Origin: Antedon mediterranea
Lineage: Eukaryota > Animalia > Echinodermata
Reading direction: 5' to 3'
DNA length: 64,000 nt
NCBI RefSeq assembly: GCF_964355755.1
Contig: NC_092677.1
Coordinates: forward strand, 1,014,101 to 1,078,100
Shown here: piece after piece, positions 7,632 to 62,824 of the stretch
Numbering within the stretch: position 1 is the stretch's first letter
Layout: every line of letters starts with the position of its first letter
Notes under the pieces: model-generated
What the model was told of the DNA's origin: nothing
What the model saw: only the letters and a program-made list of their open reading frames with translations
The model's database searches: none
Position numbers and translations under genes: made by a program

Positions 7632-10600
7632 ATGGAAATATACAAGCTTACAACATTTCTCTTGACAATCGAACTATGTGATAGTGAGAAAACATTTATT
7701 TTCTATAAGAAAATCAAACTGAAAAATGTCATTAAAATATGTTATTATCTTTCCTTTAATTGTATACCGTACATAATTATAAAAATATACTGTAATAACT
7801 TTGACGCCAGTGGTTGATCCAAAATTCTGAAAACAGCACACCTTTTTCTTATCCCCATAGGCCTATTGTGAACCCAGTGCAGAATTGTTGATTTTTTAAA
7901 TACATATTTTTAATTAAAAATGTATAATTGACAGCAATTGCGCATTTAGATAAAGATTAATATCATGCGTATTCTATTTCAGTTATAAATAGTCAAACTT
8001 CCCCGGTAGTCAATGTACAAGATGCTATTGTAAAATTAGGTGAGAATGCTGTTATCATATGTGATTACACACTCACTGGTACAAGAACTCTTGTTGCTGC
8101 TCAATGGTACAATAGCACATCAGCAGGAGATAGGTTAAACCTTCTTGTTAATAGTGCTATAACAAATCCAGATGGTAGATATGCAGTTGATACCTCACAG
8201 ACTGATGTAGTTACTCTCACCATTGCAAACACAGTGTTGTCTGATGATGGATACTATCAATGCAGAATTGTTGATTCACCTAATGCTGAAACCGGTGAAC
8301 ATTTTGGAAAACTTAATGTTCAATGTAAGTATTTACACAGGGTCTCTGTTCACAAAAACTTCTCAATATTACATTTTAGACAGGGTCTGTTTAGAATCTC
8401 AAAAACAATGAGCCTCAACAAAAATGTCTCAATATTACACTTAAGAAAAGTTTTAGTTGGGAGAAATCTGAAACAAAAACCCCCTATAACGTAATGTTGA
8501 GAAGTTAATCCGGGTCTCTATTTCCGAGATTTTTTTTAAAACCCTATATGATGCTATATGCATTATCATGATGTGGTGTACATTATTATGAACTTTTTTT
8601 TAATCACATTGAAATAAAAAAATAAAGACCATATTAGAAATAAGCTGTTTCAGCTTATGGGTTACCCTGGTATGTTGTTCGAGTACCGAATAAAACAAAC
8701 AAATAAAGAATAAGAAGAAAAGCCGGGCTGCACTGAATTTTTGATTTACCGGTGAATGATCGGCACTTTTCACGCTGCTGCTCTAGCCCGCTATGTTCCA
8801 TTAGGACTACTCAATCAGAAGCTAAAGCAAGTAGCAGTTATAGTTCTAAGGACAGACAGTTTTGTGAAAATGGAAACTCCACTATAATTTATTGATTCCA
8901 GCTGCTACAGTTGTAGACCCAAAAAACGTCTGGGAAAGAGTCTATTAGGACATGTCATGCTAAAATTACAAATCCCTAAGCATTTCTGGTATATTCACTG
9001 TCAGATATTCATTGAATTATTATCAAAACAGTCCATTAAAGTTTGTGTTTGTAATAGGATACTTCACAATTGAAATATCTAGGGTGATGAAGTGACCCCC
9101 AGATTTGACCTTAGCAATAAAATTAACTAAAGTGACAGAAATTGAGTATTCACTTCTGTAACAAAAAAATAATATTTATTCACATATAAAAAAAGAAAAG
9201 AAACCCAAAAACCATTGTCTGACAGACAATTTAAGTATTTGTTGCTTTAAATTACATTTTTTTTAAAATGACACATTCAAAAACATTTGAAATAAAAATA
9301 TTTTTCAATATGCGAGCAGCGTTTTTTGTAAGAAATATTTCTTGTTTAACCCTCCTCCAAAAAAAAATATCATTGATCGATGGGTATCATTTTTTTCCTT
9401 CAAATATCCATCTTTACAGTCAGTTCCTGCTCCATCCATATGATAATAATAAATAACCGAAAGCTACAATTTTCTGAAAAACAAAGTAGGCCTACCCATA
9501 GCTGGATTTTTGAGTGCGACAGAGCAAACATATTCCTATACCTGTGGTGGCTCAAAATACCCCCAATTCGAATTCCTGGATATGACTTTTAACGGGTCGT
9601 GTGTGTTATATTTATCACGTACAACCATCTGTTAAAAGTCATTGACATAGTCCATAAAGCTTAACATGATAATAAATATTGTGTCTCATGTTCCTCCCAT
9701 GTTCCTTTTTTACAGATTTTGAAAGCAGTAGTAGTCTTACGATTGGTGTAAATAACAACATCACTGCACAGAATGTTATAATCACATGCTCTGGTAATGT
9801 AGTTGGCAATCCAGTTCCTGATATAAACCTCTATAGAGATAGCCCTATTATTCTAACACAGACAACATTGCCTCTAACATACACAATAGCTACTGTGTCA
9901 GAGAATGATGGAGGAATCTATAGATGTGAAGCAAACAATACTGCTGGAACTGTGACAAGTAATACTAATTTAACGCTTACTTACTGTGAGTACAGAACTA
10001 TTAACACATTTAATTAAAATGAAACCACTAAACAAATAATGTAATAAATGTTTATTTCTCTCATCAAAGAAGGACCGGTTTATAAAACTAATGAATATGT
10101 ATGTTTAGGCCTATAGGCTATGTTAAGGTAGATTTAGCAAATTAAGTTAAAAGTAGTTTATCATTATTATGCACTGTACTACTAAACCATTGAACAGCTT
10201 TAAGTTTTTATAATATTACATTTAGGACATTTCTTGGTCTTCGACTCTGAAGTGTCATTCAGGTTCCCTCTTTTAACATTGTAGAAAAATGTTATATTTG
10301 TGGTGCTTATTTATTACAAAATCAAAATTTCACTCAAATGTTGTGGTACTGCTCATGTTTAGGTTTACCTTTATTTCATATAATGAGACGCCTTGTTTAT
10401 AATATTTATGATATATAAAAAACTAGAGGGTACTCCGAGAGTACAAACCTCCGCCTACTGTAAAATTCCCCTACATAAAATGCCCCCTGAATATTTTTTT
10501 TTTACATTTTTAGTCGCGTGGAAGCGACTCTATAGTTCACTATGTCGGTCGGTCGGTCTGTCTGTCGGTCTGTCTGTCTGTCTGTCTGTCGGTCTGTCTG

Positions 10601-13600
10601 TCTGTCGGTCCGGTATCACTATGCGTTTTATCGCTTTCTGACCTTATCTTGATATCAGTTTAATCTAGCTAGGTCAATTTTTAACAGTATATTCCTTATG
10701 GCCAGGAATCAATGTGGTTATGTTTTCACGGTGCGCAATAAAAAATTACGCGGTCTACGCACGATTTAACGAAATCACGTTTGTAATCATATCTTCACAA
10801 CCATGAATCACAATTAAATAAAATTTGGTACTCATAAATTTCAGGGCATAAATCATCATATGGCAATACAATTACGTGCGTAGCGCATGTAACGCATGCG
10901 TACGCGCGCTTAACATTTTCAAAATTTATTTTCGATGAAATAAGAGTACATTTCAGGCAATTTTAAGCGTTTACAAAATTGCCATGAGTGCGCATATTTT
11001 TGCGCGCGCACTGCGCGTTAAATGTTGTTGCGCACTCTTTTTGCCCGATTTCTGTTTTCTTGACTTACTTTTCAACTCGAAATTACGTTATACGAGCACG
11101 TCGAAAGTGACAGGCTACGCACGTGTAAATTTAAAAAAAATAAATGTTTTTAAACATTTCAACATTTTTAAACATGTTCAGTAATTTCGGTCAGTATAGT
11201 TCACTATGTCGGTCGGTCTCTCTTGTCTGTCTGTCGGTCTGTCGGTCTGTCTGTCGGTCTGTCGGTCTGTCTGTCGGTCTGTCTGTCGGTCTGTCTGTCG
11301 GTCTGTCTGTCGGTCCGGTATCACTATGCATTGTAGCACGCGACTTAATGGCTGTTGGCCTTGTTTTTTATTAGTTCTAAGTGTAAATATGTTAACTGCA
11401 CACTACAAAGTTGTGGATGACAGTGTGGTGTAATGGATATGTATCCAGCCTCTCACTCCTCTCAGTTGAGATCGCTGGTTCAAGTCCCACTGAGGGTTTT
11501 TTTTTTTAATTATTTTTTTATTTCTTTTGTTTTGTTTTTTGTGAACCTTGATCTTTAACCACAATTATATGATGTGTCATTGATCATTGTGGCTAAGTTT
11601 GGTGAGAATCAGATCAAAACTGTGGTCTCTAGGCAGTAAAATAGTTTTTTGTTAGTTGTGACCTTGACCTATGACCTTTTCCCCTCAAATTCAAACTCGT
11701 CCGAGCTTTTTGGGCATAGATCATTGTGTCCAAATTTGGTTAGAATCGGATAAGAACTGTGGCCTCCAGGCTGTTCACAGACACACACACAAACACACAC
11801 ACAAACACACAAACACACACACACACACAAACATACAGGGGTGAAAACATAACCTCCTTGGCGGAGGTAATTAGTTTTAAACCTTTTAACTGAAAGTTAC
11901 GTGTTGACAAAATGAACAAGATACGTAATGGTATATAATAATAATCTATATTTTGAGATAATGTTATATAGCCTACGTGTTGTAATTATATTAGAAATTT
12001 GACAATTTTTGTTTTCTCAGTATACGTAAAATTTTACCGTAAAAGATTGAATAAAAAAATAAAGCTATTCTTTTCAGATAAACCAATATTTGAACAATAT
12101 ATATATACTGTTGGACCCGATGAGAAATATGTTATCACAGCTGATGTTAACGCCAACCCTCAAGATGTGACGTATGTTTGGAGCAGTGATGATGTTAATG
12201 ATACAGATACAAACCCTGCAACATTCACATTCATTGCGTCATCAGTGGAAGACAACACAATTTATGAAATATCAGTAATTGCTACTAATCTTATTGGATC
12301 AATTACAAAGACAATGTGGATCGCAGTCTCAGGTTGTTATTCATTATTTATAGTTCTGTATCGGAAGTTCATAATATAACAACCAACATTTTTTTTTATT
12401 AATGTATTTCCTTTCAACAAACACGTAAGAAAGGTCCGCCGAAATTATGGCAACAAACAAATCATCATACAATTACATCATCATCATAAAAGATAGAAGA
12501 AAAGCATCAACGACGCATTATGTGCATTAGATAGGACATAAATGTTTTACATTCCAAATAGGGCATATCAGTATTTACCCACGTTTTAGTCTGGTAATAT
12601 ACTCTATAAGATAAAAATGTTCCGTTTTTTAGCTACAAACCAGATTGAATCAACAAATTCAGCCAAAATCACAATACCAAGTATGGGTAAGAAGAGATAG
12701 TTAAGGATCACTCAATATGTTTTTAAGTATTAAATACTTATATTATTTAATTGCATTTATGCTTTTTATTCTTCAAAGTCAACACACAGCATTAGTTTAT
12801 TACAAATGCGGAAAATGTCATAATATCTATAAAACAAGTCAATAATAATCTATGAGATTTGTGAGTAATAAGCTCAGTGCTGTTTCATATCGTATGGTAA
12901 CATGCCCACACACACACAACATTTACTGTGTCACTGTCCAACACTAAATACCTAAACAACCCTCTAAACTAAATAATCTCTCTCACTATAGAAATTGCCT
13001 AAAGGTATTTAAAAGAGACAATGTAGAACGTAAAGTGGGAGAAATGATTTATAGTCAGGAGACACGAAACTGCAGGTGTTTTTAATGTATCATAATGCCG
13101 TACGCAAATCGATTGAATAAACCTACAGTACTTAAGTATCCCACTAAAAAATTATTTTGACGCACTATTTGAAGTTAACTAATTGGTATAGTTCATTTGT
13201 ACTAATTTACATTTATGTAACTTTTTACATTACTTTTCAGAGAAAACAGTTGAACCGTGTAATAGCAATACAGGGCTGATAATTGGAATGCTCTTTGTTG
13301 GCATCTTCATTGGTGCCGTAGGATTGTATATTGGATACATTATTCACAATAAGATAAAGAAGGTATGTTGGATTTATAATTCCAAAACTGGTGACAATAT
13401 TCGAATGCTTAAGGACCACATCAATACGTAGAATTCTGCTTATTGTTCAATTTACACAGCCAGGGAAGGGGTGAGAGTAAAGAAAAACTATATTCCACTT
13501 TTAATATTAACTGTCACATAATTATACTTTATGTGAAAAAATGTACATAAATCACATTAACTGACATACATTATGATCAGAATACTACAATATATTACTG

Positions 13601-14045
13601 TAATTTATACTTAGAAGTCACTGGCAGAGAAACAAGACACAGACAAAAAGAAACAAGATGTAAGTATTGATCTGTGAAATACAATCTAAAGATGACAGAC
13701 AAAACGATTTAAATGATATATCACAATTGTTTGATTAATTTCGGCAAAACTTAAAAAATAAACTATTAACTAAAGTGATTTGGTCTAATTTGACTCCCGA
13801 TTAAACGTATTGTTAAACTCTTTGGTAGTAAATTATTGTATTAGTTTTAGAGTTTTGCACTTTATTTATTGCCACAAAGAACAATACTTTTGTAATTTTA
13901 ATTTGCTTTTTGGTAGACTTACATGGATTACGTAGGAGACACTGGCGAGCAAAACCAAACCTATCAAGACTTACAACATAAAGAAGAAGAGTCAGCTTAT
14001 GTTAATGTTAAGGCTGGAAATAAGAACAGGAAGGGGAAAGTGTGA
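7632..14045 (+). CDS. IgSF type-I receptor A1: leader, V-set, C2/I-set, Cys-less Ig/PKD-like domain, S/T stalk, TM, ITAM-like tail
   Basis: Exons 7632-7683, 7983-8324, 9716-9985, 12078-12332, 12633-12686, 13241-13362, 13615-13659, 13917-14045; all GT-AG, phases compatible, open frame. V has C..W..DDGYYQC; TM GLIIGMLFVGIFIGAVGLYIGYII; tail TYMDY..TYQDLQHKEEESAYVNVKAGNKNRKGKV*. Confidence 0.88.
10507..11368 (-). mobile_element. DINE-1/HINE-like element with (GTCG/GTCT)n microsatellite
   Basis: Terminal hairpin TAGTCGCGTGGAAGCGACT, tetranucleotide arrays, end GGCCTTGTTTT; same family at 28150, 53287 and fragments at 27560, 52700. Confidence 0.7.
11420..11495 (+). mobile_element. Degenerate tRNA-derived (SINE-head-like) fragment
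   Basis: A-box TGGTGTAATGG and B-box GGTTCAAGTCC followed by a T-run; no clean cloverleaf. Confidence 0.45.
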
Positions 14046-15930
14046 ACAATTCAGAATTGAAATAAAAAGCATTATAAATATGCTTCATTCATGCTTAAAA
14101 CAAGTGAACGGTTTGAAAAGGAAGAGTATCGATCTACACAAAACAGAATGTGTTCAGTTAAATGTAATTAGATTAGAGTTAAGAGTGTTTAGAGAAACTT
14201 AAGAAAACTTTGACTATATATTATAATTCAAACTTCGGTATAGGCATATAACGTAAATTCATCTAGATATTTTTACTCTATGCCTACTTCCTTTTAATGG
14301 CCAAACTATTCAAACTAGAAGAGCAATAGTTTATTTGGAGCAGACTATAACGGTAATTGTTATGTTTTTATCATAAATGTGTAATTAATTAAGTCAACAT
14401 TTACAGGCTTGTATATTGTTAGCAGATTAATAAATATCTTAACGCTTTTTTTCTACGATTAAACTGAATTTCGATTTTAATCGTTTTAAGTTGAGGTCTA
14501 TTTTCATGTTGTAGGACTACATTGTTTGTGAATGCCCATGACACCCGCTTACTAACCCCCAAAATGTTTCCAGTTTTTTAGTTTTAGTAATTATATAAAC
14601 TTAAATTGGCATTGCATCAATGTATACGATTAACGAATAAAAGAAGGAATATCTTTATATACAGTATTTATAATCTTTTGTTGTCATAGTTTTGCGATTG
14701 TTTAAAATAAACATACATGACGTCTAATTTACAAAAAAGGCTAACTACCTTAAAAAGAATTTAAATTATGCTCTTTTAAAACTAAGAAAACTAATTAAAA
14801 TATCACATTTGTGATTCGTAATCATGGTGCAATGAGTTTCCATTGCCATGTTTTATCAGGTGAGGTAGAGCATTACGTTAAGTTCATGGATCCGCCACTG
14901 TTTCAGAAACATCTCGATTAACCAGCAGTTATTAATACGTACTAGTGGAAAAAACTGAAGTCGAAAACCAAAACATTATAGGCTACTTAGATATGTACTA
15001 CAAATAATGTATTGTACTTCGTAGGATATTTACTTACTATAAGGAATTACGCCACCATTGATCTCATTCTCATCGCTTTTTCTGATGACTCTAAATTTAC
15101 TTATTCGTGAACCATACGAGACGGTAATCAAGCCAATTCGCTTTAGATAAAACAAAAAGTGATTACAGTTCATTCAGTGTAAATGGAACATTAGTTTTAC
15201 CATGGAGAAATAAGTTAGGATTTCTCCATGGTTTTACTCATACCTATAATAACTCGCTGTTGCATTCACGTTTCGGTTTTCATTAATATGAGTCGACAGC
15301 GCTTGAGCAGTCATACAAAAAGTAAGTTTTATATTATATATTTTGTTGGATTTCGTGTTAGATTACACATTGCTTATCAAACTGCTTTTATAATTACCTT
15401 GATAACCTTATTTAGAATTAGAGGTTATAGAGTAATTGATTCAAGCACAGACTTTATGATACATTTCAATAGGTCTACCTTTGGCCTAGACATATAGTTC
15501 GATCATTTAAGGCGGGATTCTAAAGGTATTCATTATTATTCGTTATTTATTTAATTTAAAAAAAAAAAAATAGTATGTGTCAAATTATTCGAATACACAA
15601 ATTATATTACAATTATGTCAATTGTAATCTGTGGTACCCTGGCAGTAGAAGGCCTATATGACAATGTACGTAAAATTTGTTTACACAGAACTATAAGCCT
15701 AAGTACTAAGTTTTAATTCACTCAGTATACACATTGTAATAGTTTTTACTGAATGAAATATAATGTTTAGCTCCATGATGAGGATCTGTTCAAAGATGCT
15801 GTATGCTAAAATGAATAAAATTAACCACATTCTGTATCGCAAATATGCTTAATCGGCTTTGTTAGTTAGTGTATGTGATTGCATTAGGATTTAATAATTT
15901 TCAAGATAAACTGTTGATTCCAGACTTGTA

Positions 15931-18900
15931 ATGGCAATATACAGACTCACAATTGTCTTCATTATTCAACTATGTGATTGTAAGTACATAATACATATTT
16001 TTCTCCATAAAAGGATCCCACAACCAAATTTATGTACTAATATGTTATTATGTTTGATTATCAAATAATAAATAAAACTTAAAAGATTGTTTGGACAATT
16101 CGTTATGGGACAAATATTTTATAAAATAGCTGTATAGTTTATCACATGTTGTAAATTCCAGTCAAGTGAAGATTTGATCCAATTATAAAATTTGTAAATA
16201 AAAAATTGTACAATTAACAATTGCAAGTTTCAATATAATAATAATCTAAATTTTGTGTATTCTATTTGAGTTATAAATAGTCAAACTGAACCTGTAGTCA
16301 ATGTACAAGATGCTAATGTTATATTAGGTGAAGACGCTTTTATCACCTGTAGTTATACACTCAGTGATGCAAGAACGATTATTGCTGCTCAATGGTACAG
16401 TAGCACATCAACAGGAGATCAGTTAAACCTTCTTGTTAATAGTGCTGGTACAAATCCAAATGGTAGATATACAGTTGATATCCCCACAACAACTGCTCAA
16501 GCTACTCTCACCATTACAAACACAGTGTTGTCTGATGAAGGATATTATCTATGTAGAGTTGTTGATTCACCTCATGCTGAAACTGGTGAACAGTTTGGAA
16601 AACTTAATGTTCAATGTAAGTATATAAATTAACATGGCAATAATAGGCCTAAGCTAAGTGTTCAATGTAGTAAATTGATTAATGTGACAATATTAAGCTA
16701 TTGTGAATAAATAATTACAAATTCAAGTCTTATAATGATTTACTTGCTGGTCCTATGTAATTCGTTCTTTCAATGAGCAATTCATATTATAGTTAAAGAA
16801 CTGTTAACGTTTGATGAGCAATAATCAGTTGTCTGGATTCTAAGTGGAATTGAAATATATTTGATATTATTTGAGTTTGTACATTTTATTATAGTTGGTC
16901 AACCTCAACCTGTAGTGAATGTACAAGATACAAATGTTACATTAGGTGAAGATGCTGTTATCAGCTGTGAGCACACGCTCAGTGGTTCAAGAACACTTCT
17001 AGGTGTTCAATGGTACAATAGCACATCAACAGGAGATAGGTTGAACCTTCTTATTAATACTTTTGCCACGAATCTAATTGGTAGATATACAGCTGATACC
17101 TCGCAAACTGGTGTAACTACTCTCACCATTGCAAACACAGTGTTGTCTGATGGTGGATATTATCTATGTAGAGTTGTTGATTCGCTAACTGAAAATGGTG
17201 AACATTTTGGAAAACTTAATGTTCAATGTAAGTTTGTATTGTTCCCTCTGCTGATTGTTTGCAGTAGGTTATTATATCACCTAATTTTGGAATTCATTTC
17301 ATCTCTCTTACAGATATTGATGACGTTATTATTGATATCGATTCATATACTAATCCCTCATTCACAATGACGTGTTCTGGAAATGGTAATCCTGTTCCTA
17401 AATTAAATCTCTATCACGATGAGACTACTATAGTAACTGGTACAATAACAATACTAAGATACACACAAAGTAAAATAACAGAAGATGACAATGGAAACTA
17501 CAAATGTATAGCTAGTAGTACCGCTGGACAAAAGGAAAGTGAATTGATAGAACTAGAATACTGTAAGTAAACATTTTATTATTAATAGCTTATCCAAGAT
17601 GAAAAGTGCAGATGATCAACACACTGCTTTTAAGTATCTGGTATGAAGAAGCATTGCTGCCTTCGCATAGTTAGTAATTTTTAATCACTCCTGGAGGAAA
17701 TATATAGATATCTATATATTTCCTCCATGCATCAAGTTCTGAGATAAGGTCCTAAAATAAAAACAAATAGATCGATACTATACTGCTTGATGCATGATGT
17801 ATGCGTTATGATAAACCTTTCTATCTTCTTTAGATAAACCTGTTTTTGATTCCCTTATGAATAAAAAAGCCTCTTCTAACGAAAGTGTTATTTTTTAGAT
17901 TGAAAACCTATCATACAATCCTAATGACGTCACTTACAAATGGACAATTGATGACACAGAAATTGACTATGAAGATGGTAACCCAACATTAGAATTCACA
18001 TTGCCAGTTATGGAATATACAATAACGTTGAATGTGACCAATAGCATTGGATCCACGATAGACTCTACGACATGCACAGTTCAAAGTAAGTTATGATGTT
18101 TGAATCATTGAATTATATCATACATATTACTATCACACATACTCATAACGTTCTTGTAGTCCGATATCCGTACGCAAATGTTTAATACAGATGTATTTAT
18201 AGTGATGAGAAACATATGATACCGGTAGTGCTTAAAGCGATTCATGGGTATTATTATCTTGAATCAAATATGCCTCATTTCTGAGTTACCACATACTTTT
18301 ATAAAGTTTGTTGTTGGCTTATTGTATTTTATTTTTGAGTCACAGCCGATCTATTTAAACCCTGCGAATGTGAAGAAACAACAGAAGAAACAGGCAACAA
18401 CAGCCCAGGTTTACTCATTGGAATGTTCTTCGTTGGAATATTCATTGGTGCCCTTGGATTGTCTATTGGATTGTTTATGTATACAAAGACAACGCAGGTT
18501 TGACATCGATAGTTTTTAATTGTAAAATTGAATCTACTAATTTGCATAATAGTTTAAAGATTAAAGTAATTTGAGCAAAATCAAACTTTTACATAATATA
18601 AGGTTGTAACGTTTCTAAAACACTCTTGACATTTGTATCTAGAAGCAAACAACTAACAAGGAAAAAACGGAAAAGAAACAAGATGTAAGCATTCGCATTT
18701 ATTTTTAAATAATTTCGTCAATTACTTAGAAATTTGCAAATAAAGACGCCATTCTTTGTTATTCTATCTTTTATATTTAATGTAATATTTGGTGTACTTT
18801 AAAATTCTAGCTAACTTTATTGAATTGATTTATCTTGTCACAGACTTATATGGAGTATACTGTTGAAAGACCTACTGATGGGGAAAACCATACCTATCAA

Positions 18901-18978
18901 GATTTACAACATAAAGTTGAGGAATCAGCTTATGTTAATGTTAAGACTGGGAATAGGAACAAGGGTTTGAAAGTGTAA
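15931..18978 (+). pseudogene. IgSF receptor A2: leader, two V-set exons, C2/I-set, third-type domain with in-frame TAG, TM, ITAM-like tail (pseudogene, secreted form or exon-skipped form)
   Basis: Exons 15931-15979, 16271-16615, 16895-17227, 17314-17562, 17834-18085 (TAG at 17896-17898), 18346-18497, 18643-18684, 18844-18978. Tail TYMEY..TYQDLQHKVEESAYVNV..LKV*. Confidence 0.78.
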
Positions 18979-19859
18979 ACTAAGAAGAGAATATAATGGA
19001 CAAAGATGTAACATTACGGATGATGTGATGCCACGAGGGACTCTAGGGTATGGGGAGTATATCTTAAATAAAGAATAGAAGCACGATTAATTGTCGATTA
19101 CATTATGTAATTTAGTATTTTGAATGGATAAGGTGAGATGATCCATACAGGATATAAGTATAGCCACGTGTATGTAGACATTTAGGCCTAGTAAACATTG
19201 TGCTGTTAAAATGGTAAAATGGTAGGTTATATAAGTGGGTAAAACCCAAAGACGAGTACTATTGATGGGTAAGAACATCAATTAACACGATTGAAGCTTG
19301 GTAAAAGGAATGAAAATTAAAGATATATAAATAAATCAATTAATTCCTAAATGTATAACCAGGAGATGGTTTTACTATGAATAATGAATGGCGTGTGCCA
19401 AGATTCATGCTCGTTGAGCTTGACTTGATGTATTTCAAACTCAGGTTTAAGGATTCAAATACTGTAAGATATCGATAAGCCAGTATTGTTTTATTGTAGG
19501 AATTGCGGAAATAAAAAAAAAATGAAAAGGAAAGCAGATATAGCATCGAGAATATAGTTTCTCCATGAGTGTATTTTATGAATCATAAGTACACTTAATG
19601 AACCATGAAGGTGAACAAAAGTTAAAATAAATAATGTTTAGATTTATCGTTAGTTACTTCCCTGAAGGGACAATCTAAATATTGTGCTTATGTGAAAAAA
19701 AGATTATACCTAGTCCATGTGACGGAAAATAAATGAATAAAATTTATTCATTTAATTTCTGTCACAAGTGTACTAACATTTTATTTACTAAATCTCTATG
19801 ATGATTTGAGTATAATATTGTAAACAAATAAATATAATTTGTCATTACATTATATCCAC

Positions 19860-42727: not shown

Positions 42728-42759
42728 AGTGACTGATATATATATATATATATATATAT

Positions 42760-50016: not shown

Positions 50017-50381
50017 ACAAGAAACAGCTTATACTTGCTTGATACTTGCTTGATGTTATGGGTCGGTTAGAAAGCATAACATTATGTTAATGTTATGGCT
50101 GGAAATAAGAAAAAGAAAGCGAAAATATGAACAACGCTAAGAGGATCGTTCTACTGTACATCTATATAAGTACATTATGCGCACACACACGTTTATAGAA
50201 ATTAAATTATTTAATTAATATTATTTAACTACCATTGGTGGAAGTCAAAATAATTTGTTTTCAATTAATATATGCAGACTAACGTTCATTGTGATATTAT
50301 GTTATATCAGCTAATGATAGACCTTTGAACTCTTTATTGAGTCAATTATATTCTGTAATAACACATCGGTAATTATATTAA

Positions 50382-51881
50382 CTAGATGGCACGCTCGCTT
50401 CGCTCGCGTACCATCTAGGTCGTGCCCACAGATGGTTCTCGAATACACAGTATTTCCAGCGAGAAAAAAATGGAGATTTCAAATGTACGTACCGCAGGAC
50501 TATGAATACATTGTCGTTTACAGAAACGAATAAATATACACAATGATTTATGTAGTCAACCAAAATTAGCACCCTGGGGATTACTTCCGAGAGAGAAACA
50601 AATTGAGTCAAATTTTTTTATTTGGACTCATTTAAACAAACCCAATTTGTGTTTTGTATGTAACATTAAGGGTTGAGGGATGGGGGAAGAAGATGGGTAC
50701 AAAGAGGAAACATTTTAAAATATATTCTTATCCACTCAGTAACGAAATATTGTTTTTAATGTTTTATAGGCCTATAAATAATATACCACTAAATACAGTA
50801 AAACATTTACGATTTAATACGGTACTTTGTTAAAACTCTCACTGTCATAGTCGATTGAAATAGTAAAGTACATGTAACGATACACCACTACGACGTTTAT
50901 ATATTTTTAAATTATTAATTAATACAAACGTTGAGAAGCAACTGTCAGTAATAACGTTTATTTATTTGTATATTATATGTTTATAATCTAACAGTAGGGC
51001 CTACCCACACTCACAGTAATAAAGTTTATTTGTATATATTTTTGTGGTTAATACCTTAACAGTATTGTACAGCATTGCAATACTATTTATGTTTATTCTC
51101 CAAGGGGGCCCATAAATCTAAATCTAAATCTATACCTCTATGGTTAAACCAAATAATTTGGAATGTTTATTTGTATATTATATGTTTATAATCTAACAGT
51201 AGGGCCTACCTATACTCACAGTAATAAAGTTTATTTGTATATATTTTTATATTACATCTAACAGTACCAACACTCACAGTAAGAAATTTGCGATTCAAAT
51301 TGCGATCAAAAGTGGTTAATACCTCAACAGTATTGTACAGTATTGCAATACTATTTATGTTTATTCTCCAAGGGGGCCCATAAATCTAAATCTATACCTG
51401 TATGGTTAAACCAAATAATTTGGAATGTTCCATTCATCACAAATCAATACATTTGTAAAAACGTATATTAAATGTATCAAAATAGTATTTTTTAAAGAAA
51501 ATCGGCCTGTCTTCAACATTATGATGCTGTACTCGAACTGTTCAACCGGTTTTCAGCTATTAAAAACAATTATCGTAGGAGGAGATAGGAAAATGCGAAG
51601 CCTCCTCGCATTTTTGTGGCGGGTATTTTTCAAGATGGACATCCATTAGACAGTGTATACCACGATCGGAAAACACCCCTATTTGGGGCAAATCGTTGAA
51701 CCTAAATTCGCTTTAATCGTCAATAACTAATTATCTAACTTAATTTAATTAGTAAACAGGGTTACATCAGGTGGTTAAAATCAGTACCGAAAGTACGAAC
51801 CAACTTTATATACCATCGAGTAAAAATTCTAGAAGTAAGGCGCGATTTACCGAATTTTGCCCTTACGTAAATTTATATAGA
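50382..51881 (-). mobile_element. Non-autonomous Helitron, 1.5 kb
   Basis: Absent from copy A (26686). On the minus strand it starts TC, ends CTAG, sits between A and T with no TSD, and has a terminal hairpin CTAGATGGTACGC..GCGTGCCATCTAG. Confidence 0.9.
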
Positions 51882-53286
51882 TTGTCTTGTTTCATACTAT
51901 TACAATTCTACATCGAAGCAAGTGTGTCACTCACGTTTTGTAAATACTACAAAGGATCATTCATGCAGTAGGTTTTATATATAATATATTTGGTAAGCTG
52001 AAAACCTCTATTATACCAATATTGTTAGGCCTATTTATATAGAAAACTAAACGGAAACGTATCGACTTAGGTATACTAAGGACGATACTGTCCCTGTAAG
52101 GGACAATTATCTACATATTCTGTTTATGTGAATAATAATCTATGTTAGTTTTTAGTCAACTTGAGTAAATTCTGTAGTACTTCTGAAATGTTTGTTAATT
52201 TTGGTGTTTCTAGTTTTCGTAAATTTATGCGTAAGTCTATTTATAGTTTTTTGTTACGTATTAATATATCTAATAATAATAATAATATGATTGTGAAAGT
52301 TGTGAGTGATAAACTGCTTGCGGAAACTCATTTATATATTTAAATATGCCATAAAAAGCAGAATGGTTTATACATCGAGAAAATAGTGTTAATGTTAATA
52401 TAAAGATTTATAATAAATAAATATTTATATATAGTTATAATATAAATAAATGTAATCTGGTATTACATATAGGCCTGCATACAAATAGCCTACTGTATTT
52501 GTTTATGCACCCAGGACAACGTATCTGACTACGAGTTTGACGACTAATGTCAAATTACCATGACTAAAGATTGGTTTGCCATTCTAAACAAAGATGTGAC
52601 GGGTAGTAACACATTCTGTGCTCATAAACTGTTCTATAAAGCCACATAATAGAAAGTTAACAAGGCCAATATACATGGCTCAATTTAGTGTTTACCTACC
52701 GGCCGACCAACCGACCGACATAGTGAGCTGTAGAGTCGCGTTGCACGCGACTAAAAACGAAACAGAAATGGGAAATAATTATGCGAACAGTAGAAGCGGT
52801 TTAACCTTATCATAAATCAATGAAGATCTACGTTCCACCATAAACGAAATGATCATCAGTAAATGACCATATCCTGTATAATACATTAATATAATAAATG
52901 ATTATTTACCTCAACCATCAATGTTAGTACTGCATGTCACTTTTCTATTGAGTAAAGGCCTATACGTGTGCCTTAAGTAAACGATTGCATGTGATTAGAA
53001 CCACAGATAGCAACAAACACAATACCACCAATAGTCCGTGCTCACCTGTATGCAAATTACAACATAAAATGAAAAAGATAATACTACTCATGGATTAATG
53101 AATTGCCTATTTATTAATCCCTGCACTACTGCAACCATGGGGATTGTTTCAACTTTCTGAAAAGTTATCATCTTTTAATAATAAAAAAAATGAACAGACG
53201 GTTAAACAATATAAAAAAAAATATACGGAATGAACGTATGACGGACACAGGATTAAAAAAAAACGGAGACATAATACCCAACAAAG

Positions 53287-53450
53287 AAAAACAAGGCCAA
53301 CAGCCAATAAGTCGCGTGCTACAATGCATAGTGATACCGGACCGACAGACAGACCGATATACCGACAGACAGACCGATGACAGACCGACAGACAGACCGA
53401 CCGACCGACCAACATAGTGAACTATAGAGTCGCGTCCACGCGACTAAAAA
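53287..53450 (+). mobile_element. DINE-1/HINE-like element (duplicate of 28150-28313)
   Basis: Same termini and microsatellite. Confidence 0.7.
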
Positions 53451-53808
53451 TGATGGTACAGGCATTGATGAACAAAGGCAGAAAAATTACAGAAAACGAA
53501 AAAAAAAATACACAAAATGAACAAACGAACACAAAAATGAACCAGTGAGAGAACGAAAATATTAATCATTATTTAAATAATACTATTTTCGCATTTAATA
53601 TCCGTTTTGGTTAAAACGCAGGGTTTCTCTGAATTTATCCATCATTCAGAGCAAAGCTAAACAAAAAATATAAGGCCTATCCAAAGTTCATATTATAACA
53701 GTTATAATGATCTTTTTTTTGTAAATTTGCACTTACAGAAAAGGTGTAATAGGAACGTGTCGAAGTGGACAAGTGACGATTTTATTAAAGGCGAAAAAGA
53801 CTTAAAAA

Positions 53809-56800
53809 ATGTACATTGTCTTCGTGTTGTCCTGTATAATCTCAGCTGTTGGTAAGTACCACAGTAATAACAACAACTAACGTATTCCATTATTCTTAGT
53901 ATTCTTAAATTTTAAAGCAATGTGTTTATTATGATTAAGAATTTCAGTCTAGAATTTATACTGACATTAAATAAACAAATAAGGATAAATTTAACCTAAT
54001 CAATTAAACAAATAATATCATCAGGATATCCAATCATTATCGTTTGCTAGTTGCCGTACAACAGCTTACTTTTAAGCTTGGTTCCCATCAGAAAACGCAA
54101 GGACGTGGCACAATGTATCGACAGAATTTTTAGTGGGAACCAAGCTTCATGACCAAGTGCATGATTCCGATGTCATCCTTAAGCTTGGTTCCTAATAGAA
54201 GCGCAACGCAAGGACGTAAGCACAACGTAAGTAATTTGACCAATCATACTTTTGCTATAATATAATATAAAGAAAGAATTCATAAAGTAATAAACTGAAT
54301 ATCTTCTTTTTAAGAAAAATAAATGTATAAATAATCATATTAGAAAAACACTATCGCTTTTTGATGATGAACAACTCTAAAATGTATATAGGAAATGTTT
54401 TTTTTATTTTGTATCTATTATGCTTATTGTATTATGTTTTTTATGTAAAAGGGTCCTGCGAAAACAGAAGTGTAAATTTCTCTATGCAGGATCCTTGCCA
54501 TCATTTATGCTATGAAACTATATTTATAAAGGATGAGTAAATAAATGAATTGAATTGAATGGATTATGTGAACTTTCGCTTGTGATTGGTCAACTTGCTT
54601 GCGTTGCGTCTACGTCCTTGCGTTGCGTCTCTAGTGGGAACCAAGCTTTATGGTTCACCATTTACACTGCCTTCGCTGTTGTTGTCACAATCATTATTTT
54701 CATTTTAAAATTGATATTGTTATGAATACCAATATTTTACCTTGTCATTGACCATAGTACCCTTGACTGTTGCGCTAGAGGTTACAATAAGTGATGTGCA
54801 AGAATTTACCGAGAATTTAGACGCGTTACTGGCTTGCGACTACACACCAACCAGTGCAACGGGCGTTGATATATCGTGGACACGAGTTAATGCACAGAGC
54901 GACATTATTAATTTAGTAGTACGAAGTGAAGTGGTTGATGAATTCAAACCACGTATGGAACTCCAGGCTTCTGATAATTTCCAGGGTAACGGTGGTTTAA
55001 CAATTCATAATGTCACTAGAGAGGATGCTATGTATTATGTGTGTGCAGTATTCTCCACTAGTGATGGTCAAGAACAAGGAATAACTAGTTTACAGGTACA
55101 ATGTAAGTATTATCAATGACCAATGAATACTAAACTGGTATTTTACAAACCGTGAAAACACAGTAGTACTGTAAAGAATCTTTAACCTAATATTTGATAA
55201 TACTTGGATTATAACATTTATAAGTGTGTAAACGGAAGAAACGGAACCATTTTATTATATCATGCGTCACGACTTATCAGACCACTATAATCCTCTATTA
55301 TTATAACATGCGTCACGACTTATCAGACCACTATAATCATCTATTATATCATGCGTCACGACTTATCAGACCACTATAATCATCTATTATATCATGCGTC
55401 ACGACTTATCAGACCACTATAATCATCTATTTTTATTATCAGGAATGCTGATTCTATCTTTTTTGTCTACATCATTGAAACTATTTTTGATAACTGATAA
55501 TGTAGTTTAATTGTTTTGAAAATACTTAATAACTTTTATTTGTTGCCTTAACGCAATTGTGCTTGTTTAAAAGTTGCATATTCACACAGTCGTCAATTGT
55601 TTTTTTTTTTCAGGGAATTACAAGCCACAAATTACAAGTGATCCAGCTCCATATTCTTTGCAAGTTGGTGACAACGTAACATTTACGTGTTTATCTGAAG
55701 CCAATCCTACATCAAAAATAGCATGGTTGAAGAACAACGTTACCATCGACATGGATGACAGATTCACAAAGAACGAGAATGCATCTACTCTGCACATAGA
55801 TGGTTTAACTCGAGATGATCACGCCCTCTTTAGTTGTAGTTCAAGAAACATTCGAAAGGAAATCTTGAGTGATCAGATTGAACTAAATATAGAATGTAAG
55901 TGCAGTATACAAAGTAAAACATAATTTATTGTAACCATGTAAATCCTGCAGACACTGAAGACATTTACATGGCACTAAAAAATCTTTAAAAAAACAAACC
56001 AATCATTGTCATTGAAGAACAAGATATTGCATGTTCTATTAATCTATGAGATTAAGCTCTAATCCATTCTATTTGGTATTCAATCTATAAATCAAAAACT
56101 AAATAAAGAAATTAGTAAATACGATAAAAACTACTCATTCTAAACATTAAAATATCACTATCCGTCCCATAGCTATAAATGAATAGTTTGTATTTTTGTT
56201 ATCTCCGGAAGATCAATAATATTGGCTGTTTAACTATGCTAATGCATGCTTGCTTTATACCAGATGATCCGCCGTTGAATAATTCCAGATATAATAAAGC
56301 GAAGGTAATTTCCAAAAAGACAGATGCTTCAATTACAATTATTATTTCATTTGATTTCATTTATTGTTTTCGACAAAACGTTCGGGACTTTGAAAGGGAA
56401 GTTCCAGCATACAAATTACAAATATTTATTAACATGATGAAGATACATGTTTTAATAGATGAGCCAGAGATGTATTTGAACCAGACAGGCAACACAGTTG
56501 AATGCACCAGTGACGCGAATCCAGCAGTGTATCAGTACGAGTTTGAAGTAGACGGTAAAGTAGTGAGGACAGCCGACGCAGTGTACGAATTGAAGGGAAC
56601 TGAATGTGTTAATATCACGTGCTTTGGTACTAACAAAATAGGAACAGGCAACGCATCGGATATCGTGTGTCCTCTGTGTAAGTTTATACTGCCTTGGTTC
56701 TAAGTATCATTTAGTATCTACATTCTATTGGCCTAGATTCCAATTCTAATCGACGGCTACTCGATATTGATTAATTAAATTTAATCTTCTTATTTATAAG

Positions 56801-58726
56801 CAAATACTAAATACATAGATAAAACATTATTCAGAGTGTAAACGGAACAATGTTATTATTGCACTTGCACCACCTGATTGATCAGACTGTTATAATCATT
56901 TATTATTGTACTGAATGCCAATTCTATCCTTTTTATCTTCATTATTTTAAGTAGCTGTTAATGCTTTTGTTTGTTTGTTGCTTGTCAGTTGCTTCAAAAC
57001 ACAATTATGCTAGTTTAAAAGTTGCGTTCACACAGTCTTCAATTGCATTTTTAGGGAATTACAAGCCACAAATTACAAGTGATCCAGCTCCAGATTCTTT
57101 GCAAGTTGGTGACAACGTAACATTTACGTGTTTATCTGATGCCAATCCTACATCAGAAATAGCATGGTTGAGGAACAACGTTACCATCATAGAGATGGAT
57201 GACAGATTCACAAGGAACGACAATACATCTATTCTTCACATAGATGGTTTGACTCGAGATGATCACGCCCTCTATGGTTGTAGTTCAAGAAACATTCTAA
57301 AGGAAATCTTGAGTGATCAGATTGAACTAAATATAGAATGTAAGTGCAGTGTAGTAAAACATATTGTAACCAAGATAAGGTATATGAATTGAAAGGAGCT
57401 CATGAATGCGTTAATATCACGTGTTTTGGTACTAACAAAATAGGAACGAATAACGCATCGGGTATCCGTGTCCTAAATGTAAGTTGATAGGCCTCTATTG
57501 GTTCACATTTAGAATTTAAAGATTCTATAGATTCCAAATCCAATCAACGGTTAATATTAATTAACTAGCCTTAAAGCCCTTTTGGCTTATTTATGTTTCT
57601 CCGGCATAAGTGCATTCTACATAAAAAATTAACTGTCATGTTATTTCACAATGATGTATCTTATGAAAATAAAATTGAATTGATTTGAATTATTTCGTTA
57701 TTATTATATAATAAATAATTTATTATGTTTTATTATTTATTATTATTATATTATATTTATTAAATTTTTATTTACTTTTTGGAAGAAGTGGGAGAGGGGT
57801 TAGTTAGAAAGTATATCGAAATCAAAAATTCTGAAAATATAAATATTGTTATTATTATTAACTGGCAATTTGTTTTTATACTTCCATGTAGGAAATATTT
57901 TTACCGTTTGTCAGATAAATTAAAAAAAAGGTGTATATGTATGTATGTTAGCTTAGGTCTACTTATAAAAAAAGTAGTATAGTATAAACACTGGCCTAAC
58001 AATATTTTTTTTTCGGCAGGTGAATGTCTAACTGTTGAATGGCCGACAGTTTATCCAGAGCAAACAGTAGAAACATTGAGTTGGAAGACAAGACTGGTCA
58101 TCGTGAATGTTTGTGTTGGAATGCTAATTGGTGCCATTGTAATGTGTATTGGAATGTTTGTCTATAACAGATGTTATATAAGAGGTTTGTCGCTTTATAT
58201 TTAGACGTATTTTGGTAACACGTCAATGTTTATTTTAAAACATTCATGTCTCATGTGAAAGGTAGATACATAATTCACTCCCATGTTTACACAAATGTTT
58301 ACTAAATAATTGTGTTTGTTACTATTCTGTTGGTATTTGATATATTTTATTACCTAGATACATTTTGTCTTTATTTTTAGAAAACACGAAAACGAAAAAA
58401 CAAGACGTAAGTGTTAAAATATTGACTATTGATTTTTTTTATAAATAATTGCCAACAAAGAAAAAAAATAATCATGTTGATTTTAATTGGAGAAGGTTAG
58501 AAACGTATACCTTTGAATATTGACAAAACAAAACAACAAGGAAGTTTCCGTGAATATTATTTATGGCTCAGCCTGCTAGCCTATTATTATTTATAATAAT
58601 GACATTTGAACTTTCGTATTTATCTTGCAGATGTATATGAATTCCATAGTAAACGACTCCGACAAAGACCATTATGACGACTTACAAAACAAATTAGAAA
58701 TGCCGGCTTATCACAGTGTTTATTAG
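53809..58726 (+). CDS. IgSF type-I receptor B2 (paralogue or allele of B1) with shortened tail
   Basis: Exons 53809-53851, 54758-55102, 55614-55895, 56459-56677, 57055-57339, 58020-58184, 58381-58406, 58631-58726; an extra T at ~58721 ends the tail at YDDL-x8-YHSVY*. Confidence 0.85.
54247..54560 (+). mobile_element. ~310-bp LINE 3' end inserted in a MITE (MITE pair 54074-54648)
   Basis: Absent in copy A; TATGTAAAAGGGTCCT..TATGCAGGATCC matches the LINE 3' UTR at 1621-1675; (GAATT)n tail. Confidence 0.75.
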
Positions 58727-60615
58727 TATGATACAAAGTTCTGTCTACAAAAATGTGTGATGTGCCCAAATATGGTAGTAATATACTTAAATAATATGGT
58801 AGTGATATGACATCATCATGTCCATATGGGCACATCACATACAGTTTTATATGTAGACAGAGCATTAGAAAATACGGTAATACAATACAAAGCTTTAAAA
58901 AATAAAAATAAAATGAAGGAAGGTATCACTACATAATCTAGATATCCTCAAGTTGATACACTTAAATTGTATATATTACTATAAGTGGCATGTTTAAGTA
59001 TATCTGTACCAGTAAGAATGAGTCACGTCGTCGGTATTCAGTTGAAGAATACGACTTTTAAAAGCCCATTGTTGGTTTTATAATTATATTACAAAGTTTG
59101 TTACAGATTGCACAATACTTTGCAAAATATTTAACTTCCTTGTAGGGATGTACTAAACATTTTGTACACACCAGCGAAATTGAATGAACAAGGAGTGAAA
59201 TATTTCAGTTTTATTTCTTCTTTGATGAAGAAGTTTCATATTTTGCATATTCAATCAACTTTTTCTTAAATGATTTTTCTGATATGTTCACATCTGCTTA
59301 CAAAATAATTATGAATAACGACTATATTGAAGCAAGAACGAACGTAAACCATGGAGGTATAAAAATATGCGTAAACCGAACCCAGTACCATTTTGATTTA
59401 ATTCATGAAACTACCTCGTGCCATTATTCAGATATATTGACAGTTTTGATTGATATTCACATGAAAATAATATTGAATTAGCAAAAAAAAACATAACATA
59501 AACATGTGGAGGTAGTCATGTTTACTGCAGTAAAATAGGCCTTTTTGCAGTAAGTATGTATCATCATTTGTTGCTGCTACTTAGGGATGTATACCGCAAC
59601 ATGATTGATCATATTTCAATATTGATTTAATGTACACAGCAACACGGTAGACATTGTAACGATTGTTAATCTCATTTATTTATACAAGTAAAAAAAAACA
59701 CATACATGGTTTAGATTTGAGGGGTTAGTTAAAACACAATCAGATCACGACAAGAAAACCAAACTTCTAGGTTTCAGTTAGTAAAATTAGTTTACATTAA
59801 TTAAAGTTTGGTTTAAAAAAAATACAAGTAAACACTGAAAATTGTTAGTAACCTTATTACATAATTCAATTATGTAAAAAAATAATGATGAGTTAAAAAT
59901 TGAAGCTTAATATTCTTCTAATATTTCATTATACTTACTTACATGTCAGACCATGAAGATAACAGCATTTATGTCTTATGTGAGTTTTAAACAAAATTAT
60001 AAGCATGCACTAGATAAAAAAACAAAGCAAAGGAGATATAGTTATAAAACAAAGAACATTATGTTATTGATACAAAACATAGGCTAAGATATAAAATGTA
60101 ACATTGTAAATTCTAATCATTAATTCGTATTGTATAATTTTTAATTTCTATATAATATATTTTGTTGATAATATCTACCAAATGTATTAACTATAATGTC
60201 AGTCATTATACCATAGTGTAAAAATTAAATTTGTATGTACAAATTTAATCGAAATACCGAAAACTAACCTACTAAAATTACGCTAACATTAATGTTACAT
60301 TGTCATTATTGTTTAATGACCGTATATTTATATATGACTTTACTAATTATGATCATTTGTACATCAAAACATTATACTTTGTGACAACTCTATTACAATA
60401 ATTATGAATTCCTGTCCATTTTGTATACTCATAAAATGTCATGTGTTGGAATTTACTTTAATTTTACATTTTAATTTCAAACTGAGTAAATGAAATTGAA
60501 ATCCAATCTAAAAAATAGAAATAATAAATTCCATCTAGAGAAGGGAGCCCTCATTCAGAATGATAAATTCTTGTGATCTTTCAGGGGTCTGCTAAATATT
60601 CTACGAACCCTAGAA

Positions 60616-62824
60616 TCAAATGTCACTCTGGACGCTTGAATACTGTGTCTCTGGTTTTGTGCGAATATTTTCATCCTGTTTACCAGGATTGTTAAGATCC
60701 AGCTCAGCATATGCCAGTTGCTCTACGTTCTACATCAAGCAAATAGTACAATTTAAATATTATTATGATCCTAATTATAAATATTTTCAGTATTGTTTAG
60801 GTCGAATGTTTGATGGGCGGCGTTATTGGAAAAACCGTTGTTGATGCCAAGAATTTGTTAAAATTACACGTCTTTACTTACAGCCCCAGATTTCTTTGAA
60901 TCACTTGGTTTCGGCTTTTGGACGTATGCAGTACCATAACCACCAGTTAAACCTATTAATTCAGAGGTGTCTTTTGTGGTTATTACATTTCCAGCGGAGG
61001 TCCTAACCAAGTAAATGAAATTACATGAAATGGAATTATGTGATAATAATGTATGTGCAATTACTAGTAAATTATAGAATGAGTGCATAATAATTAATAA
61101 AAATACAGTACAGTATTTACATTTTGTTACCTGTGTTTTTTTTTTATAATAATACTTACACCCTCTCACTGAAACAATATTTTTTTCCTGTAAGAAGAAA
61201 TAGCAAAAAAAAAAAAAAAGTTTTGGCGAGAGGAAAAACTATATTTGACAATTCTGCTTTTATTTTCTATGGAATGGAGAGATTGTTTTCTTATATTCAG
61301 TAATTCATTAATTATAATTTCCTGTTATTCGTTTCACGGGAACGTCTCTTCTCAGTTAGGGGTGTACACTGAATAGGGGTGTCCTACATAGTTTAATGGT
61401 ACTGAGGTATAAGAAGCCCACTCATAATTATTTAGAATACATTTTACGAAAGGAACTACTTCACTACTACTAGGTTAGGTTCACACCCAAAACATTACTT
61501 ATCATTTTTATTAAAGGTGTTTGTGGAAAGCCGATTTATGATTGGTTTTTTGAATGGGATACATTTTAACTGAATTACTTTTTCTTATTATATTCTATGA
61601 GATAATTATTCTAAAAAAAATATTGAAAAGGATAGTTTTCAATTGGGTAAATCTTCAATTACAGTATCTCATGTATGTAGATAAAATTGCCAGAATATTT
61701 TTAAAGGGAATGTTTAAAGTTTTACGTTAATAGCCTACCAAAATTAGATATCCTGTAACACAGGCCTAAAAGGCTACAATAAAAGAATGCTACAGTATTC
61801 TTCATTTGAATTTTTGAACCTCCTAAATGCTTTTAAACCTAATAGAAAACGTCATATTCAATTTAGTAATTTTTTGTTATTAATATTCACACATTCTTAT
61901 CAATAACTTTATTCACAAACATGATTTTTTTAAATATAAAAACTATATATATATCAAATATTTTTTTTATTAATAATGTATGTTTTTGTTGTTTAGTAAT
62001 GTATTTTTGTTGTTTAATAATGTATTTTTGTTACATTAAAATTGTTTCACTACTGATATAACTTATAACTCTTGTTAGAGGACGTTTTTCTCGTTATAAT
62101 TACCGGTACGATTTTGTAGACAATATTCTTTGTAATTTGCAGATACACACTATTTAAAGGGAAATGTTATTATTGCTTTATGTTAATTGAACTTAACATT
62201 TTCGCAGTATGTAATACGTGAATAATTGATTATTATCCTATTTATATTATTGTTTCTTAGATTAGTAGTAGGCCTACTTTATTGGTATACATGACACCTG
62301 TTTTAAGGTCAACTATTCATTTTTCCAATTGTATAAGTTAAAACTATTAACTTACTACCAAAGATAAAGCCAAAATATAGGCCTATAGCAAGCACTATCA
62401 ATACAATCGTTACTGGTATAACAATTCCAACTGTAAAAAATAATATAAATTATTAAGTAAAAACAACACGACATTATGTGTATAAAATTAACTCTCTTAA
62501 CTTTTGCTTAACATAACATATATATTTTATGGAAAGGCAAAAAATGTGATGAAACAACCGACCATACTCTGTGCATTGTATCTTTAATATTTTACACATT
62601 ACGTCTTATGTATATAATTCATCAATTCTTACGATACATATTTATGTTCAATGTTTATTCTCCATAACCAGTATTGCTAAACTAGTTGTTTGAAATAGAT
62701 GCTCAGCTGAGTAGTTGGTAAACGTTTTATCATAAATTAGTTTTTAACCAATTTATATTTTCTGAATAAGACTCACCTATAAGATCAGCACTTTGCCCAT
62801 CACTGGGATTATAGACATCACTAG
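60616..62824 (-). CDS. Inhibitory-type receptor I2, 3' part (stalk, TM, ITIM+ITSM tail); ectodomain exons beyond the window
   Basis: Minus exons 62824-62777, 62430-62356, 61187-61160, 61002-60882, 60729-60616; phases 1-1,1-1,1-2,2-0,0 all join. Protein ..VGIVIPVTIVLIVLAIGLYFGFIFGRKKYC..NVEQLAYAELDLNNPGKQDENIRTKPETQYSSVQSDI*. Confidence 0.85.

Follow-up and report, generated by a model that had tools for sequence, protein, structure and literature searches.

Candidate paired activating and inhibitory immunoglobulin receptors in a tandem gene cluster of the feather star Antedon mediterranea

Introduction

Receptors with opposing tyrosine motifs are described from vertebrates and, among invertebrates, mainly from the colonial allorecognition systems of Hydractinia and Botryllus. 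In the CD33-related Siglecs, SIRP, PIR/LILR and CD300, tails that join a tyrosine-based inhibitory motif of immunoreceptors (ITIM) to a switch motif (ITSM) go together with homogenisation of ectodomains between opposing members, and activating members mostly rely on a charged transmembrane (TM) residue and DAP12 or FcR-gamma. Here we analyse a window of 64,000 bases from the feather star Antedon mediterranea (contig NC_092677.1, positions 1,014,101 to 1,078,100), 32% GC animal DNA with zero N gaps, which holds a tandem cluster of single-pass immunoglobulin (Ig) receptors. Six loci (A1 to A6) have tails that we call A type and two (B1 and B2) belong to a B type with ITIM and ITSM. The ITIM+ITSM tail and the ectodomain homogenisation are as in the vertebrate families, but a charged residue, sought as a route to an adaptor with a tyrosine-based activation motif of immunoreceptors (ITAM), was present in none of 14 crinoid TM segments. 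By its predicted anatomy and history, the cluster is likely to resemble a paired-receptor family.

CEACAM1/CEACAM3-type pairs, as described for Xenopus Ceacam (PMC5112662), share with the crinoid cluster an N-terminal V domain followed by C-type Ig domains, an inhibitory type with ITIM and ITSM beside an ITAM-like type that has YxN sites and signals with no charged-TM adaptor, transcription of the two types in opposite orientations, and V domains that are most similar within a species. Unlike Ceacam, the crinoid receptors have PKD-like domains (in the crinoid Anneissia also EGF) next to the membrane; no orthology was seen, and matches to the family are confined to crinoids. The A-type motif ends in YxxV and lies whole in one exon, whereas the Ceacam YxxL motif is split by phase-0 introns, and V identity between types is 58–80% in crinoids against 80–93% in the Xenopus pairs (PMC5112662).

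The Hydractinia Alr genes (Huene et al. 2022, PMC9546547) likewise form a tandem Ig-superfamily (IgSF) cluster with one domain per exon, a V-set first domain, many pseudogenes, and ITAM and ITIM tails on different members. They differ in a membrane-proximal domain that is Fn3-like, where the crinoid one scores weakly as PKD, in their strict ITAMs and in lying within a mapped allorecognition locus; we found no sequence link. Botryllus FcoR (PMC12582321) is an IgSF cluster of an invertebrate deuterostome, with ITIM, hemITAM and YxxV-type ‘core’ tails and a copy number that varies by haplotype. FcoR, unlike the crinoid receptors, pair with tail-less Fester-family partners encoded adjacent to them and carry a hemITAM and dual core-2 motifs, not YxxL-x8-YxxV; here too, no sequence link was found.

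A full-text literature search, confined to main texts outside subscription, gave no account of crinoid ITAM or ITIM receptors. The sea-urchin genome papers of 2006 reportedly describe an expanded set of V-type Ig transmembrane genes, some with tyrosine motifs. An ITIM receptor has been reported from amphioxus (PMC8211107) and, according to a review, an ITAM receptor from oyster. We do not claim the present cluster as a first in echinoderms.

Two tail types are shared between crinoid genera

Eight Ig-receptor loci lie between 7632 and 62824 (~55 kb), six on the plus and two on the minus strand. Their number and strands are as the initial annotation of this DNA had proposed, and their splice sites are canonical; only about six are independent (see below). 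Consensus definitions of ITIM, ITSM and ITAM were taken from PMC9546547, PMC5112662 and PMC8211107. As also read earlier, the last exons of A1, A2, A3, A4 and A6 carry YxxL-x8-YxxV and that of A5 the same pair at x10 spacing. When five window tails were shuffled 5000 times with composition preserved, YxxL-x8-YxxV arose in 0.3–3.1% of shuffles, for a pattern picked after the sequence was seen and for tails that are related. The pair at a spacing of 8–10 is present in eight of nine A-type tails compared, including A4 and the database protein P0006, both with a second tyrosine that lacks N at +2. YxN occurs at some tyrosine in eight of these tails and YVN in six. All nine, Anneissia included, begin their last exon with a third conserved tyrosine motif, YM(D/E/T)Y or YMN (for example at 13917–13935), which matched no consensus tested.

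For the two minus-strand genes, LxYxxL and TxYxxV had been proposed. In B2 both motifs are in frame (LAYAEL and TQYSSV), while B1 is frameshifted and stops before them. The Anneissia japonica protein P0168 has LQYADL and TTYSSI, and LxYxxL and TxYxx[IV] are retained in both tails. Over the last exon, B2 and P0168 are 51% identical (E 3e-6), and none of 5000 shuffles scored as high. A BLASTP comparison of P0129 with one B2 tail exon gave no match; the B-tail link surfaced only with isoform P0168. The ectodomain of P0168, V-C-PKD-EGF-C, is that of the A family placed on a B-type tail. Its accession adjoins that of A-tailed P0012, and both lie on a 154,236-base contig. The gene model of P0012, also from A. 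japonica, opens with a partial trypsin domain ahead of V and probably merges two genes. The reverse combination is seen in P0006, where a B-type I-set domain is joined to an A-type tail.

Given these tail motifs and the TM segments, a predicted inhibitory role of the B type is well founded, and an activating role of the A type, though likely, is less certain.

V domains group by species and tails by type

A tree was calculated from 14 A-family V domains; it left out five long-branch rows (A4 V, A5 V, P0007 V2, P0012 V and P0144 V), an earlier tree of 19 rows having given long-branch warnings. Anneissia supplies three rows, among them that of ITIM-tailed P0168, and these fall into one clade (support 100/100); the approximately unbiased test rejects monophyly of the two B-type V domains (p-AU 0.0037). 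P0168 V is 79–80% identical to the V domains of Anneissia P0001, which has an A-type TM segment, and 55% identical to the presumed B-type V of Antedon P0007. As far as these sequences go, binding domains follow species and tails follow type. The same pattern is known from paired leukocyte receptors, as restricted homogenisation (PMC3210942), and from the Xenopus Ceacam pairs (PMC5112662). Either gene conversion or repeated exon shuffling would yield V domains grouped by species and tails grouped by type.

Changes are also unevenly spread over the genes. Between A4 and A6, the V exon has 13 changes and the two I-set exons have one (p=2e-5). Among 11 Antedon V domains, tip loops vary more than other loops (p=0.0025), for loop windows set once the alignment had been seen.

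This is a tandem cluster of feather-star single-pass Ig receptors with two tail types, and we regard it as moderately probable that they work as paired activating and inhibitory immune receptors. The B-type V domain would recognise a ligand of self or microbial origin, a Src-family kinase would phosphorylate the tail, and an SHP-type phosphatase would be recruited as a brake. The A types, with look-alike V domains, would signal through their own tails to a Syk/Shark-type tandem SH2 protein and/or to Grb2 at YVNV, with no DAP12/FcR-gamma-type adaptor involved, and would trigger uptake or activation, much like CEACAM3 in its pairing with CEACAM1. Under pressure from microbes or parasites, V exons would be exchanged and genes duplicated and lost. 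More tentatively, and at somewhat less than even odds in our judgement, this may be an independent echinoderm paired-receptor system. In such a system exon exchange would maintain the likeness of V domains inside a species, ITIM+ITSM and non-canonical YxxL-x8-YxxV tails would be conserved across genera, and coelomocytes would use a missing-self or decoy logic like that of CEACAM, Siglec and SIRP.

If this is true, paired-receptor logic was reinvented outside allorecognition and before chordates, in a solitary echinoderm, and the cluster offers concrete candidate receptors for echinoderm self/non-self discrimination. Graft rejection is known in echinoderms, but we know of no receptor for it. 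The family is easy to miss, because related database records bear generic adhesion names and because neither A1 nor A3 turned up as a database protein.

A number of points weigh against paired receptors. The label ‘activating’ is not secure, since the strict ITAM Yxx[IL]x6-9Yxx[LI] occurs in none of the nine A-type tails (in eight if V is allowed last). Five of the nine match a loose ITIM (SAYVNV, SVYKNV), and in P0012 of Anneissia the YxxL tyrosine is lost while YVNV is kept. The presumed B-type V domain of Antedon is only 58–66% identical to A-type V domains, and A4 and A6 have no B-type partner of similar V. The grouping by species and type rests on P0007 being B type and P0001 being A type, both inferred, and the tail of P0001 is incomplete in its gene model.

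Rates and variability speak partly for paired receptors. The ratio of non-synonymous to synonymous rates (dN/dS) is 0.32 (0.15–0.64) for TM plus tail of A1/A3 and 0.60–1.38 for six V pairs, none of them significantly above 1 and all with intervals that include 1. Synonymous divergence between A1 and A3 is lower in V (0.17) than in C plus PKD (0.36; p=0.04), but V and tail differ significantly neither in synonymous divergence (p=0.09) nor in the ratio of non-synonymous to synonymous changes (p=0.48). In the 11 Antedon V domains, positions resembling complementarity-determining regions (CDRs) hold 1.10 bits of variation against 0.70 elsewhere (123 of 20000 permutations, p=0.006), with windows that were set by secondary structure only, after the alignment had been seen.

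Transcription is indicated by at least one contig, of 570 bases, from run X5 (same organism code, another study, probably RNA), which joins 22829–23165 to 23554–23781 with four letters between, an exact match to the predicted V–C splice of A3. The label of X5 as RNA is inferred, and the contig covers a single A3 junction. Compared with A3, 36 of its 337 V bases and nine of its 228 C bases are different (p=0.004), and it is either a divergent A3 allele or a close paralog. On balance, pairing is better supported than in the initial annotation, with both tail types present in Anneissia, V domains sorted by species and tails by type; gene number and the ITAM label have become weaker.

A duplicated block and the number of genes

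The sequence at 26679–38473 recurs at 51873–64000, and the copies differ by substitution at 1.2% of non-exon and 1.5% of exon positions (~1.3% overall). The left copy of the block (26388–38473) includes the end of A3, A4 and the 3′ part of B1. The right copy (50082–64000) has an A3-like 3′ end, a 1.5 kb insert at 50382–51872, A6 and the 3′ part of B2, and runs out of the window. Because A4/A6 and B1/B2 are a single block from one recent event, the eight loci amount to about six independent genes.

It is possible, but on the unlikely side, that the second A4/B block (50082–64000) is an uncollapsed second haplotype and no real duplication, which would affect gene number only. Substitution levels such as those between the copies fall inside the allelic range of marine invertebrates, and the frameshifts of A6 and B1, each due to one inserted base, could stem from errors in the assembly. 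Against this reading, the window has no N gap and the copies are flanked differently, with truncated B1 and A5 on the left. Moreover, the right copy starts in a stretch where the final exons of A3 and A5 are homologous, as expected of unequal crossing-over.

Read depth in run X1 is about 135–160, with no second letter, at 12070, 16971–16977, 23755–23783 and 25424, and about 300, evenly split, at other places. This is a weak hint that the other haplotype may miss, or strongly differ in, parts of A1–A3; depth on a contig does not measure copy number.

Opposed or similar tail functions

An immune or scavenging family whose tails are not opposite seems improbable to us. The A tails would then be Grb2-docking and endocytic (Yxx-hydrophobic) or ITIM-like, giving an uptake or decoy set beside one SHP-recruiting receptor. 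The missing strict ITAM, YVN in six and the loose ITIM in five of nine A-type tails would all fit, as would P0012 with YVNV and no YxxL tyrosine; in LAT, YVNV is known as a classical site for Grb2 (PMC2194190). Such tails would not account for the YxxL/YxxV pair at a spacing of 8–10 in eight of nine, A4 and P0006 among them. P0005, P0006 and P0012 lack the S that the loose ITIM requires, and YxN sites are found in the ITAM-like Ceacams of Xenopus as well (PMC5112662). Opposed tails remain the reading we prefer.

Ectodomain folds and relatives

Of 19 ectodomain exons in a Pfam scan of loci other than A6, 15 were assigned to Ig families, one had a weak PKD match and three had none. V-set scored above cut-off on all six V exons scanned, and four tail exons gave no call. 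The domains show the V-set hallmarks of B- and F-strand Cys, C-strand Trp, D-x-G-x-Y-x-C and a C′ strand; C26, W42, D88, Y92 and C94 are invariant in 15 V rows. The A3 V domain was modelled with a predicted local distance difference test (pLDDT) score of 92.5 as a V-set fold, and its top fold matches are V domains. Among solved structures the best is a T-cell receptor V-alpha (E 4e-7), a generic V-set likeness. A reading of the domain as an antigen receptor was rejected, as neither a J-like FGxG nor a signal for rearrangement was seen. The V domains of A4 and A6 form a separate subfamily, 21–28% identical to those of A1–A3.

All six matches to the A3 V exon are from crinoids (61–75% identity), and among 166 proteins compared, a match to A3 V above 55% occurs in crinoid records only. 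The best non-crinoid match in a profile search reaches 28% identity over 43% of the query. Since such likeness is at the generic Ig level, orthology to nephrin/Kirrel, nectin or NCAM is unsupported, and no one-to-one ortholog in an adhesion family was found. The A4 V domain has only weak CEACAM matches over partial stretches. In a hidden Markov model (HMM) search with representatives, about 140 of 150 rows were giant multi-Ig proteins and only P0129, P0144 and P0165 were added; the giant matches may mask distant relatives from echinoderms whose ectodomains are short. No Alr or FcoR sequence turned up in the homology searches, and no sea-urchin protein was among the named matches. By sequence comparison, the cluster appears to belong to none of the named families tested. 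The initial annotation had pictured a lineage-specific family evolving by duplication, domain shuffling and pseudogenisation, and crinoid-only matches, the copied block, the shuffled P0006 and the broken loci bear this out.

The nine Antedon protein clusters that were checked are all placed on a contig of 28,587,047 bases and are built from the same parts in varied combinations. P0004 and P0011 have short tails, and P0002 and P0003 have no clear TM and tail; some of these models may be incomplete.

Slightly less probable than tails that are not opposed is a non-immune role in adhesion or recognition (nervous system, gametes, larval settlement or regeneration) through tyrosine motifs, with turnover reflecting relaxed selection in a tandem array. 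Near-neutral V dN/dS and four broken loci of eight fit relaxed selection, the A3 V fold is about as good a match to domains of Dpr/DIP and NCAM as to those of antibodies, PD-1 and VSIG4, and the database labels are generic adhesion names. ITIM-like tails occur on adhesion molecules, too. No ortholog was found beyond crinoids, however, and two tail types across genera, V domains grouped by species and loop-focused variation are unexpected from drift alone.

Feather stars are solitary and are not known to have a natural fusion reaction, which counts against allorecognition. A complex for histocompatibility of the Hydractinia Alr or Botryllus fester/FcoR kind, an allorecognition role such as the initial annotation had allowed for, is very improbable and found no specific support. 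The layout is similar (clustered IgSF genes with a domain per exon, many pseudogenes and ITAM/ITIM-type tails; PMC9546547, PMC12582321), allografts are rejected in sea urchins and sea stars (PMC2248247) and the V differences of the X5 contig from A3 could be allelic, but neither Alr nor FcoR gave a match in the homology searches.

Gene models

In complete models all junctions are AG/GT and all Ig-type exons are phase 1-1. When the exons listed earlier are spliced, three of the eight loci (A1, A3 and A4) give full open frames; A2, A5, A6 and B1 are broken, and B2 has no ectodomain inside the window. Within the window, B2 consists of stalk, TM and tail exons, and the ectodomain of B1 is reduced to one truncated I-set exon.

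A1 (7632–14046, plus strand) is intact and encodes 422 residues as signal-V-C2-like-PKD-like-stalk-TM-tail. Its exons are signal 7632–7683, V 7983–8324, C2-like 9716–9985, PKD-like 12078–12332 (named for its resemblance to the exon of A2 and to P0168), S/T stalk 12633–12686, TM 13241–13362 and tail 13615–13659 and 13917–14046, with YQDL-x8-YVNV at 13962. A3 (22444–26437, plus) is also intact, with 502 residues and one C domain more than A1: signal 22444–22498, V 22828–23169, C 23554–23820 and 24255–24503, PKD-like 24841–25086, stalk 25248–25301, TM 25607–25728, and tail 26055–26099 and 26308–26437 (YQDL-x8-YVNV). A4 (28670–33260, plus), intact with 491 residues, has the other ectodomain type, signal-V-I-short Ig-I-TM-tail, on exons V 29334–29657, I-set 30122–30403, short Ig-like 30958–31179, I-set 31550–31834, TM 32520–32684, and tail 32881–32906 and 33131–33260 (YDDL-x8-YHSV and a terminal SVYKNV).

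A2 (15931–18979, plus; signal-V-V-C2-like-PKD-like-TM-tail) has a stop in frame in its PKD-like exon, 17834–18085, followed by TM 18346–18497 and tail 18643–18684 and 18844–18979 (YQDL-x8-YVNV). It is either a pseudogene or functional only if this phase-1/1 exon is skipped. The Antedon RefSeq protein P0021 equals the last 134 residues of the A2 model across three splice junctions, so that these exon borders are matched by an annotation made independently. A6 (53809–58761, plus) is a near copy of A4 with a +1 frameshift directly after YHSV, by which the distal tyrosine motif is lost. A5 (44298–50017, plus) is a pseudogene without a signal exon: V 44298–44630, C 45239–45499 and 46171–46413, PKD-like 46635–48210, TM 49099–49214, and tail 49564–49608 and 49882–50017 (YQDL-x10-YVNV). 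The PKD-like exon is split by a 1.3 kb insertion (46790–48102) that is DNA-transposon-like, bounded by perfect terminal inverted repeats of 15 bp and flanked by a 5 bp duplication; two of its open reading frames (ORFs) gave no Pfam match. An assignment to hAT-like elements was dropped in view of the 5 bp duplication and the lack of a Pfam match.

B1 (35146–44243, minus strand) is a pseudogene with a 5′-truncated I-set exon 43950–44243, stalk 37326–37373, TM 36920–36988 and tail exons 35692–35719, 35413–35533 and 35146–35260; a 1-base insertion (+1 frameshift) brings a stop just ahead of the ITIM, and an exon scan of the window gave no signal or V exons for it. At 44229–44298 the B1 I-set and A5 V exons stand back to back, both genes being without 5′ exons, and similarity to P0007 begins at 44229. 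In the simplest and likely reading, a deletion took the 5′ ends of two genes that lay head to head. P0007 (signal-V-V-I) shares 97% identity with the B1 exon and its intron run-on. B2 (60615–62824, minus) comprises stalk 62777–62824, TM 62356–62430 and tail 61160–61187, 60882–61002 and 60615–60729, with LAYAEL at 60717 and TQYSSV at 60648. Its ectodomain is expected past base 64000 and is probably RefSeq P0007.

A scan of the window for signal-peptide exons, with thresholds set by the analysis itself, gave six plus-strand candidates, which are the starts of A1, A2, A3 (twice), A4 and A6; none serves A5. The five minus-strand candidates lie off the position of B1 or within duplicated intergenic DNA.

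Repeats and other minor features

In A4 and A6, a decayed partial copy of the short Ig-like exon lies 3′ of the second I-set exon (31875–31979 and 57380–57480); an I-set and short-Ig pair was duplicated within the gene and then half lost. Intron 1 of both genes holds a small inverted-repeat element (29042–29203 and 54181–54648), with a further insertion of ~310 bases only in A6. The 1.5 kb insert at 50382–51872, found in the right duplicate only, contains internal direct repeats at 50946–51429. A long GCA/TTA-type minisatellite in the B1/B2 intron (37748–38475 and 63201–64000) differs in length between the copies, and the long B1 intron 41138–42379 has inverted duplicated elements of ~250 bases flanked by long (TA)n runs. 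Just 5′ of A1 lies a 360-base inverted repeat pair (6124–6486 and 6965–7318), and a 22-base tandem array is found at 2285–2484. LINE (long interspersed nuclear element)-like retroelement fragments occur at 842–1579 (plus), 3153–4431 (minus) and 42814–43092 (plus); two of the four ORFs scanned in them carry a reverse-transcriptase domain.

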